Assembly (NCBI GenBank): GCA_951406725.2
Contig: OX597817.1
Span: 115,816,001-115,880,000, forward strand
Length of the DNA stretch: 64,000 bases
Direction: 5' to 3'
Origin: Octopus vulgaris
Lineage: Eukaryota
Shown: piece by piece, positions 28,986 through 52,026 of the stretch
How the letters are laid out: each line of letters begins with the position of its first letter
How positions within the stretch are numbered: the first letter of the stretch is position 1
The notes under the pieces: generated by a model
Told to the model about the DNA's origin: nothing
Database searches by the model: none
What the model saw: only the letters and a program-made list of their open reading frames with translations
Position numbers and translations under genes: made by a program

Positions 28986-29447
28986 TTTGTTTTCTTCTCA
29001 CTTACTTGTGTCTCTCCTTACTAACCGTCAGCCATTTTGTATTTCTATTGTATGTCTTCATTTGCGCATGCTTATATCTCTATGTGCGTCTATGTTTATT
29101 TAGTGTGTGGGGGGGATGCCTGTAATATTTGTATCTTCTGGTTATATACATTCTTGTAATTTGTATTTTGTTTTTGTTGTTGTTGCTTTTGTTCTAATTT
29201 TGTTCATGTGTTTACATCCACCCATTATTATCATTACATATGCTTGTATGTATGTATAACAACAATATTAGTAATAATAATAATAAATCTAATCGAAAAA
29301 AAAAAAATATACATATACATATATATATATACATACATATACATATACATATACATACATATATACACACATACATACACATATAGATATTCATTTCTAT
29401 TTCTTTAATTACCTGTGTATTTATTATGTTTGCAGGATCCACTATTG

Positions 29448-29652
29448 TCATATGTTGTGGTGTGCGCTATTGCTCCATTCTAGTTTTCTATTCAGGCTAG
29501 GTTTATTTTCTATTATATGTGTAGCTTCTGTAATTTGTCTAATTGTTGCATCTGTTCTATGTGTGGACAATATCTTAATCTCTATGTTATTGATTGATCC
29601 CCCGTGTTCTTGTTCGGCGTGTTGGTACAGAATCGATGAGCTTTTACCTTCC
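29448..29652 (-). pseudogene. Penelope-type GIY-YIG endonuclease C-terminal fragment
   Basis: GKSSSILYQHAEQEHGGSINNIEIKILSTHRTDATIRQITEATHIIENKPSLNRKLEW fits the S..H....H...kIl....R.i.Ea..I....P.LN.k.Ew pattern of PLE endonucleases. Confidence 0.85.
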
Positions 29653-30496
29653 AGGTAAAAGCTCATCAATAACATAGAGATTAAGATATTGTCCACACAT
29701 AGAACAGATGCAACAATTAGACAAATTACAGAAGCTACACATATAATAGAAAATAAACCTAGCCTGAATAGAAAACTAGAATGGAGCAATAGCGCACACC
29801 ACAACATATGACAATAGTGGATCCTGCAAACATAATAAATACACAGGTAATTAAAGAAAAAGAAATGAATATCTATATGTGTATGTATGTGTGTATATAT
29901 GTATGTATATGTATATGTATATGTATGTATATATATATATGTATATGTATATATATATTTTTTTTTTCGATTAGATTTATTATTATTATTACTAATATTG
30001 TTGTTATACATACATACAAGCATATGTAATGATAATAATGGGTGGATGTAAACACATGAACAAAATTAGAACAAAAGCAACAACAACAAAAACAAAATAC
30101 AAATTACAAGAATGTATATAACCAGAAGATACAAATATTACAGGCATCCTCCCCACACACACTAAATAAACATAGACGCACATAGAGATATAAGCATGCG
30201 CAAATGAAGACATACAATAGAAATACAAAATGGCTGACGGTTAGTAAGGAGAGACACAAGTAAGTGAGAAGAAAACAAAGGACCACTGATGCGGTCACAG
30301 GAGTACGAAAGAACTTTGGCCGAAATAAGATTAAGATTAATGTAAAAAATAAATATCACTGAAGCAAAATAACACCAAATATATAGTGCGTGTGTTTTTA
30401 TTGGCTAAACTGGCAATATGACCATTCCGAAATATAACAATATCTGTTTCAACACACGACTTCACATAAAAAATCTTGCACAACAAATATTTAAAC

Positions 30497-51256: not shown

Positions 51257-51287
<31 letters not shown>

Positions 51288-51295
<8 letters not shown>

Positions 51296-51988
51296 GAGTG
51301 ACCACTATGTGGTTCACTCTAGTGCTAAAAATAGTAGCTATACCATTAGCGGAGCTATTTTTAGCACTAGAGTAAACCACATAGTGGTCACTCTCTAATA
51401 TTTATGTATAAATTTGTATTTTTCCCTTGCTTTTTATGTGCTATGCCACTTGGTGTTAAATTGATGGTATTATTAAATTAATATCACATTTTTCACCCTC
51501 ATTTATAAATGTAATTATACTGCAGTAAATATTTTATGCAGTACTCGTTTCCAGTAAGTCTTATCGCTCTTTTGGCGGGGAAATTTGAATCATAACTACG
51601 GATACAATTGATTAAACCGCACGTGTATTTGACGCTCGCTGCGACTTAATAAATTGTATTTAAGACAAACCCCTGCTGAAGATTTATGGATGTTGTGTAA
51701 GTAAAATTGCATGGTACATTAATAATGAAACAATTGTTCAGGGTTAATCTATTTTTTCGTTGTGTTTCACTTACTTTACGTTAAATGTAGTGGTATTTCT
51801 TCTTGGACACAACTTTTAGTGGCTATACCATTAGCGGAGCGATTTTTAGCACTAGAGTGAACCACACAGTGGTCACTCACTAATATTTATGTATACATTT
51901 GTATTTTTCCCTTGGTTTTTATGTGCTAAGCCACTTGGTGTTAAATTGATGGTATTATCAAATTAATATCAAATTTTTCACCCTCATT

Positions 51989-51995
<7 letters not shown>
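51288..51995 (+). mobile_element. Non-coding terminally redundant HHR element (retrozyme / PLE-derived) in (TA)n
   Basis: Direct repeats 51332-51510 and 51817-51995 (period 485 bp), 5' inverted segment 51288-51334 / 51355-51401, (TA)n on both sides, HHR in the unique part, no ORF of 60 aa or more. Confidence 0.85.
51671..51743 (+). ncRNA. Type I hammerhead ribozyme with long stem II and palindromic stem III
   Basis: CCCUG-CUGAAGA-[uUUAUggAUGU UGUGUAA guaaaa UUGCAUG guACAUuaAUAAu]-GAAA-C-aauu-G-U-U-CAGGG: stem I CCCUG/CAGGG, GUU triplet, palindromic ACAAUUGU. Confidence 0.8.

Positions 51996-52026
<31 letters not shown>

Follow-up and report, generated by a model that had tools for sequence, protein, structure and literature searches.

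The window, a stretch of 64,000 nucleotides from Octopus vulgaris, carries between two (TA)n runs a non-coding element built from one complete unit, part of a second lap and a short inverted arm (Table 1). The architecture described in the initial annotation was reproduced. A direct repeat (51332-51510 and 51817-51995) has a period of 485 bp and a redundancy of 179 bp with 10 mismatches, the 47-bp inversion at the 5' end matches 51355-51401 at 46 of 47 bases, and (TA)n sequence is present on both sides. The element was likewise confirmed to lack an open reading frame: no frame of at least 100 aa overlaps it, and the longest ATG-initiated ORF in the circularised unit is 38 aa. The two arms, of 664 nt (ending at site B) and 47 nt (ending at site A), have in common a TAG at 51332-51334, identified by hand. 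In the unit numbering used below, q1 corresponds to window position 51332, the ribozyme to q340-412 and its predicted cut to q407|408.

Table 1. Features of the retrozyme copy in the window (window positions)
Feature	Positions	Strand	Basis or remark
Left (TA)n target	51259..51291	.	A TA run also follows 206 of 235 A/B ends in the family
Inverted arm, 47 bp, unit positions 24-70; 3' end is priming site A	51288..51334	-	Repeat comparison and A/B rule
Complete 485-nt unit (lap 1), 32% GC, without ORF	51332..51816	+	
Hairpin immediately upstream of site A	51369..51394	+	Fold; alignment by eye
Site A, AU-rich; fixed 3' end of the family, internal to this arm	51397..51410	+	
Type I hammerhead ribozyme, predicted cut after U51738	51671..51743	+	Descriptor match; covariation on 29 copies
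Partial lap 2 (unit 1-179), terminating at site B	51817..51995	+	
'Tail' of ~100 nt, site A to site B, at this end alone	51896..51995	+	Tail as defined in sections of PMC11167929
Site B, second fixed 3' end	51981..51995	+	Arm-end counts
Right (TA)n target	51989..52022	.	

The ribozyme is the sole match to a type I hammerhead (HHR) descriptor in the 64-kb window. Its stem I consists of 5 bp (CCCTG at 51671-51675 with CAGGG at 51739-51743), and its core comprises CTGAAGA (51676-51682), GAAA (51727-51730) and a GUU triplet. The stem II region spans 44 nt (51683-51726) with a U-U at the stem's base; stem III has only 2 bp (A-U and C-G) closed by an AAUU loop, within the palindrome ACAAUUGU. A 2-bp helix III with a tetraloop and a U-U at the base of helix II are likewise described for HHR_Amex2 of the axolotl, whose weak cleavage as a single ribozyme improves in a dimer (sections of PMC7229834; the logic of dimer cleavage by such ribozymes is laid out in parts of PMC4209133). 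The complete ribozyme claimed in the initial annotation, with its predicted cut after U51738, is present as stated, with the qualification that the whole locus contains just one, and the copy is consequently unable to release a monomer.

Rfam at its gathering threshold returned no match in the window, and the HHR region by itself folded no better than shuffled sequence (z 0.12 and z -0.45), so that the reality of this ribozyme rests on covariation. Across 29 HHR copies, hand-picked to span subfamilies, 94% of 666 cells were paired (30-49% in slid controls), and double-sided changes occurred in 51 cells as compared with 13.8 in shuffles (none of 500 as high), both controls ignoring relatedness among the copies. 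Four of the five stem I pairs are compensatory, with the paired forms CUCUG/CAGGG, UUCUG/CAGAG, UGCUG/CAGCA and UGCCG/CGGCG, plus CUCUA/UAGAG in the young type described below. Stems I and II covary between subfamilies, the older ones included, which suggests that the structure has been under selection. Four older arms cover two HHR regions, and in two of these the second core is broken. The hairpin upstream of site A is also retained with altered pairs in other subfamilies, as judged from an uncounted alignment by eye. The window copy itself is atypical in stem I, and its exact HHR pattern is for this reason found at only two places in the genome; the perfect CCCUG stem is rare (CCCCTG in 2 of 121 descriptor matches, a set that includes a few unrelated flanking motifs). 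The GG at 51713-51714 is likewise rare or private to this copy, nearly all contigs compared having other letters there.

Searches of the genome (2.8 Gb in 227 contigs) with the window unit recovered copies that are 74-97% identical on many contigs, among the best 40 of 2343 candidates. Exact HHR half-site patterns matched 156 times, young-type HHR patterns 142 times and an A-module pattern 370 times, with no match to the reversed pattern in each case; altogether the family has at least 298 HHR-motif matches, which are dispersed. Eight natural units are 485-504 nt long and mutually 76-94% alike. The family contains no ORF and has a GC content under the 45-50% threshold for metazoan non-LTR retrozymes. 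A tblastn comparison with two Penelope-like element (PLE) proteins revealed no ORF linked to a unit in 255 family loci (overlapping loci included); three loci contained fragments, none continuous with the unit.

The family thus has the DNA-level characteristics of metazoan non-LTR retrozymes (one HHR per unit, head-to-tail units, no ORF and low GC) and lacks the RT plus GIY-YIG ORF between pLTRs by which an autonomous PLE is recognized. That the sequence is a mere pLTR of a coding PLE was among the refuting possibilities raised at the outset; on this reading the 1.4-mers would be truncated coding insertions. A coding element of Hydra type in this genome does have the identical order HHR-A-B-ATG and the same stem III, and our similarity searches cover the best-scoring candidates only; nevertheless, the ORF-less units are joined head to tail in arrays of up to 7, and neither the 255 loci nor the 30 of a sister family have a linked ORF. 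We regard the pLTR reading as extremely improbable, and the assignment to the non-coding retrozyme type stands. From its sequence features we would class the family as a metazoan retrozyme that inserts in the manner of a PLE, a new family of a kind already known. Literature on retrozymes, PLEs and hammerheads in octopus and cephalopods yielded no description of it, and it is possibly catalogued as an unclassified repeat in libraries or supplements.

According to the sections of PMC7229834 consulted, metazoan non-LTR retrozymes such as axolotl HHR_Amex2 / Rtz_353 and the Mytilus repeats are likewise tandem repeats of short units that are low in GC, contain no ORF and carry a single type I HHR, and they too co-exist with PLEs. 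The octopus units differ in length, at 485-504 nt rather than 170-400 nt (criterion 150-450 bp), although they fall within the 51-972 bp given in parts of a Xenopus preprint (bioRxiv 10.64898/2026.07.22.740005). Further differences from the retrozymes in those sections of PMC7229834 are a stem II of ~16 bp and arrays of no more than 7 units; circles were demonstrated there by Northern and are putative for the present family, whose fixed ends and inversions (see below) have no counterpart in the same sections.

The sister family (L299:767-1170; L350-L379) is older and more diverged, with a CAUA/UAUG stem I and a shorter stem III palindrome, ACAUGU; its A and B modules and its layout are the same as those of the main family. 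One of its 30 loci has a 32% Hydra-like fragment beyond the TA run. Inserts of 220-420 bp common to L007, L021 and L024 were considered as part of the unit and rejected, as they resemble a common genomic repeat. This repeat, which we presume to be SINE-like in these copies and in L032, occupies an identical site (unit 135-150) in three unlinked copies (L021:1967-2199, L024:2138-2359 and L032:1848-2191) with short duplications, and L183 has a break point matching the same insertion site.

The ends of the copies are highly constrained. Among 263 arms from 163 non-redundant loci, 235 terminate at one of two sites, A (116 arms, q70-90) or B (119 arms, q168-190), and 206 of these 235 ends continue into TA repeats. 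Copies are therefore not freely permuted: of the properties expected of a circle-derived family in the initial annotation, tandem arrangement and lack of ORFs were found, and free circular permutation was not supported. The two sites are separated by ~100 nt and lie ~156 and ~257 nt downstream of the HHR cut, so that any longer arm crossed the cut site. At site B (unit 170-180), 5' ends seemed over-represented, but not to a significant degree.

The same two sites govern the inversions. Of the 85 pairs with an inverted arm, 62 combine A with B, one A with A and one B with B, the remaining 21 having an end that falls in neither class (p 2e-16); all nine young inverted loci with both ends called are A/B. 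The lengths of the A and B arms are uncorrelated (rho -0.12). The initial annotation had attributed the inversion to a single cDNA folded back on itself. For the window copy this could still apply, since its short arm lies inside the long arm, with a ~20-nt loop and a 3-nt microhomology, and 36 of the 62 A/B pairs are compatible with the same origin. In the other 26, however, neither arm is contained in the other, which makes fold-back impossible for those pairs, and the inverted arm starts at site A just as ordinary 3' ends do. We consequently judge fold-back improbable, and as a general cause it finds no support, with an A/B combination in 62 of 64 fully called pairs.

Two 3' ends, a one-sided tail, 5' inversions, partial tandems and (TA)n targets together constitute PLE-type insertion, and the A/B ends with their tail are the published two-site 'tail' signature of PLEs. 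Sections of PMC11167929 (Frangieh 2024) report that PLE RT begins at two internal sites, the interval between them becoming the genomic tail, and that a purified PLE (PAc) cuts and extends both target strands and is predicted to act as a dimer; the tail is frequently found at one end only (parts of PMC8557442, Craig 2021). The window copy, with its 664-nt B arm and 47-nt A arm, fits two-site priming. PAc Poseidon and the Hydra clade, as described in the same portions of these two papers, have likewise two RT start sites, a one-end tail, partial tandems, 5' inversions, (TA)n targets and an HHR upstream of the start sites. Unlike them, the octopus family lacks an RT-EN ORF; its tail is ~100 nt long as opposed to 30-40, and its start sites are AU-rich and TA-like, while PAc starts in an AC-rich stem loop non-homologous to the target (parts of PMC11167929).

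A looser HHR pattern with the same stem III gave 1927 HHR-like matches genome-wide (12 in controls), and the main type among them belongs to a coding PLE, of which it forms the 3' end. Its intact ORFs of 838-841 aa (L216:2407-4929, L217, L218 and L220) contain DKT, a CxCX5C linker and no CCHH, with CxxC and CxH near E and N (all by eye); RWK appears as KWK. Clade motifs, a canonical HHR and (TA)n targets all point to a Hydra-type PLE, an assignment made by eye against section 11 of PMC8557442. The four loci have a 3.5-kb AT-rich 3' UTR, which exceeds the under-3-kb elements that this part of PMC8557442 describes for the clade. In this PLE, site A lies 91 nt beyond the HHR cut and site B a further 85 nt beyond A, with the ATG 239 nt after the cut. 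Its loci with two arms and a call for both ends number 12, of which 11 are A/B and one is A/A; two loci with three arms and three in which an end was unclassed do not enter this count.

As the donor of the enzyme for the retrozyme, the Hydra-type PLE is a plausible candidate. In DNA sequence the 3' modules of the two are not significantly alike (79 of 500 shuffles scored as well) and gave no blastn or nhmmer match to one another, the common features being stem III and layout only. Borrowing of PLE machinery has likewise been proposed for Xenopus retrozymes, which also occur as dispersed monomers and rarer multimers; among 57 Xenopus families, 24 have matches in known TEs, and PLEs account for 21 of the 22 (Li et al., parts of bioRxiv 10.64898/2026.07.22.740005). 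By contrast, when the octopus family was compared with a single coding family that bears an HHR, the match was not significant; the octopus family's link to PLEs is the insertion signature. Pfam assigned no family to either of the two PLE proteins that we examined (for the Hydra type, a 471-aa part).

The other protein belongs to a very abundant PLE with a 1312-aa ORF comprising RT and a C-terminal endonuclease-like region (L117, L118), which we take to be Neptune-type. It is not favored as a donor, since it neither resembles the unit nor has an HHR that matches. An inverted pair of 3' fragments from this very young family lies in the window at 29200-30065, and the best 150 of 4242 candidates are 99-100% identical. 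A short CTGATG...GACGAAA motif in its non-coding part may be an atypical HHR. Elsewhere, a further HHR family (L120, L136 and L141, around position 1500) reads CTGAAGA ACTAC...GAAACAATTGTA GTGA and has a short stem II.

A young subfamily of the retrozyme with a 493-bp period was reached via a motif from sequencing-run contigs. Its unit is 81% identical to that of the window, and its circular fold scores z -4.9 as compared with -2.9 for the window unit (40 shuffles). Twenty young loci contain arrays of up to 7 units, set in (TA)n and with A/B ends; arrays in the family as a whole range from 2 to 7 units. An interim reading that the family forms no arrays, derived from a two-HHR pattern found at 4 places, was overturned, the pattern having missed the young subfamily with its GTA-TAGAG cut site. 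Copying of more than one unit across the ribozyme cut site, as the initial annotation proposed, is thus real, and the array units are exact across that site with no junction indels, as judged from HHR counts.

The window copy is an old, decayed and otherwise ordinary member of the family. Its age follows from its two laps, which differ at 10 of 179 sites (5.6%) while laps in young arrays differ at about 1 in 493 (~0.2%). Given this divergence and its single HHR, it does not hold up as the best candidate for a still-functional ribozyme element; to judge from their sequences, the better candidates would be the young arrays, and the 493-nt unit is probably still active. The rule for 'active' families in parts of the Xenopus preprint (bioRxiv 10.64898/2026.07.22.740005), two complete HHR units, separates them in the same way: the young arrays pass and the window copy fails. 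The young HHR carries U4C, a change that reduces HHR activity in vitro and yet is tolerated in a viroid (sections of PMC3088659).

Within the 20 young loci, 45 cut-to-cut monomers differ by a median of 1 position within an arm (47 pairs) and of 11 between loci (935 pairs), and in 6 of 11 multi-unit loci private substitutions are present in every unit. In 10 of 11 loci (L337 being the exception), the inverted arm finds its best or equal-best match in the long arm of the same locus, a comparison that is informative in ~6 of them, as short inverted arms carry little information. Near-identical units within loci are the pattern that rolling reverse transcription of one circle would be expected to leave, though such homogeneity in these 20 loci could also come from local gene conversion, from polishing of the assembly or from a parent array that was not sampled. 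The 1.4-mer, which the initial annotation read as the footprint of a circle, does record copying beyond one unit; by itself it cannot distinguish a circle from a tandem transcript.

One alternative keeps two-site priming by a PLE and replaces the circle with an uncleaved transcript of a head-to-tail array, the HHR being weak or acting at a different stage and any circles incidental. In vitro, PAc, the Anolis PLE, works mainly on uncleaved RNA, and its HHR mutants insert normally (parts of PMC11167929); likewise weighing against a cleaved and circular template, only one of nine Xenopus retrozyme dimers was cleaved in vitro (portions of bioRxiv 10.64898/2026.07.22.740005). In the octopus, U4C is found in the very subfamily with the longest arrays, and arrays of 3-7 units exist as possible sources. 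The 7-unit array at L330:644-4252 is a mosaic in which haplotypes switch between units, with up to 13 substitutions; one circle cannot account for it, and it suggests template switching between RNA molecules or copying of a mixed array. Set against this, private substitutions in all units of the 6 arrays require that one unit was repeatedly copied at some point, a covarying HHR was kept in the older subfamilies, and 5' ends cluster just past the cut site. We therefore regard a tandem template as unlikely, if a serious contender.

The clustering of 5' ends was measured on 129 arms (A-anchored loci and partner arms) chosen blind to the HHR. Fourteen end at q411-425, 4-18 nt downstream of the cut, as compared with 4.2 expected (p 1.2e-4, or ~0.005 after 44 bins); L016, for its part, has a 5' end at unit 409. 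About 30% of the arms that reach this interval stop there (14 of ~47) and about two thirds continue, which suggests that some templates were cut or blocked by stem I and that the majority were continuous. The pile-up may instead reflect microhomology or mapping error at fold-like junctions. The proportion of stops could also be accommodated by template jumping on a linear, HHR-cut monomer, effectively a nicked circle held together by stem I, on which RT stops at the 5' end or jumps to the paired 3' end; stem I would tether both RNA ends. Such jumping sits poorly with units that are exact across the cut site and with stops that fall 4-18 nt away from the cut rather than on it, and we consider it very doubtful, a little more so than fold-back.

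Taken together, these data make it probable that the window copy arose by an old insertion, with a single ribozyme, of a non-coding retrozyme whose 3' ends are fixed at two sites, and whose ~490-nt RNA, itself likely circular, was likely copied in trans by the RT-endonuclease of a PLE. In the cycle we envisage, multimeric source loci, which are seen in the DNA, would be transcribed (a step for which there is a weak hint), and their HHRs would cut out monomers, likely paired as dimers through the ACAAUUGU palindrome. Closure of the monomers into circles would fall to a host ligase, by analogy with retrozymes of the axolotl, mussel and coral. Both (TA)n strands would then be nicked by a PLE RT-EN that is likely dimeric and likely Hydra-type, which would prime one strand at site A of an RNA and the second strand at site B of that same molecule; the pairing of A with B ends and the matching arm haplotypes are seen in the loci. 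Each RT would run a variable distance, up to 7 laps and often through the HHR cut site, and joining of the two cDNA ends would yield the inversion.

More tentatively, and with a confidence somewhat short of even, we propose that the insertions directly record twin priming that is programmed and takes place on one circular RNA, in which a PLE RT-EN dimer devotes one dedicated site to each strand and copies up to seven laps. If this is true, PLE tails, inversions and tandems are explained together, and retrozyme circles are tied to a specific enzyme. Copying of retrozyme circles by PLEs into more-than-unit copies was offered as a model in earlier work (2014-2020; sections of PMC7229834 and PMC4209133). 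New here is insertion evidence that can be counted: the A-with-B rule (62:2), laps that are identical and private to a locus, and stops near the cut. Since the same genome offers both a young substrate of minimal size and candidate enzymes that are intact, the choice between circle and tandem template becomes directly testable.

Contigs from sequencing runs provide a weak hint of transcription of the young units. A contig of 523 nt (493+30; depth 192) matches the young subfamily, the RNA status of its run being a guess, and its length is what would be expected from a cyclic path with 31-letter words; tandem DNA or transcripts give the same. In three runs guessed to be RNA, with no run recorded as such, the contigs consist mainly of variants that form a minority in a DNA run. 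In run X15, the dominant unit-like contig (contig 1) differs before the A module from those of X9 and X16, hinting at another active variant.
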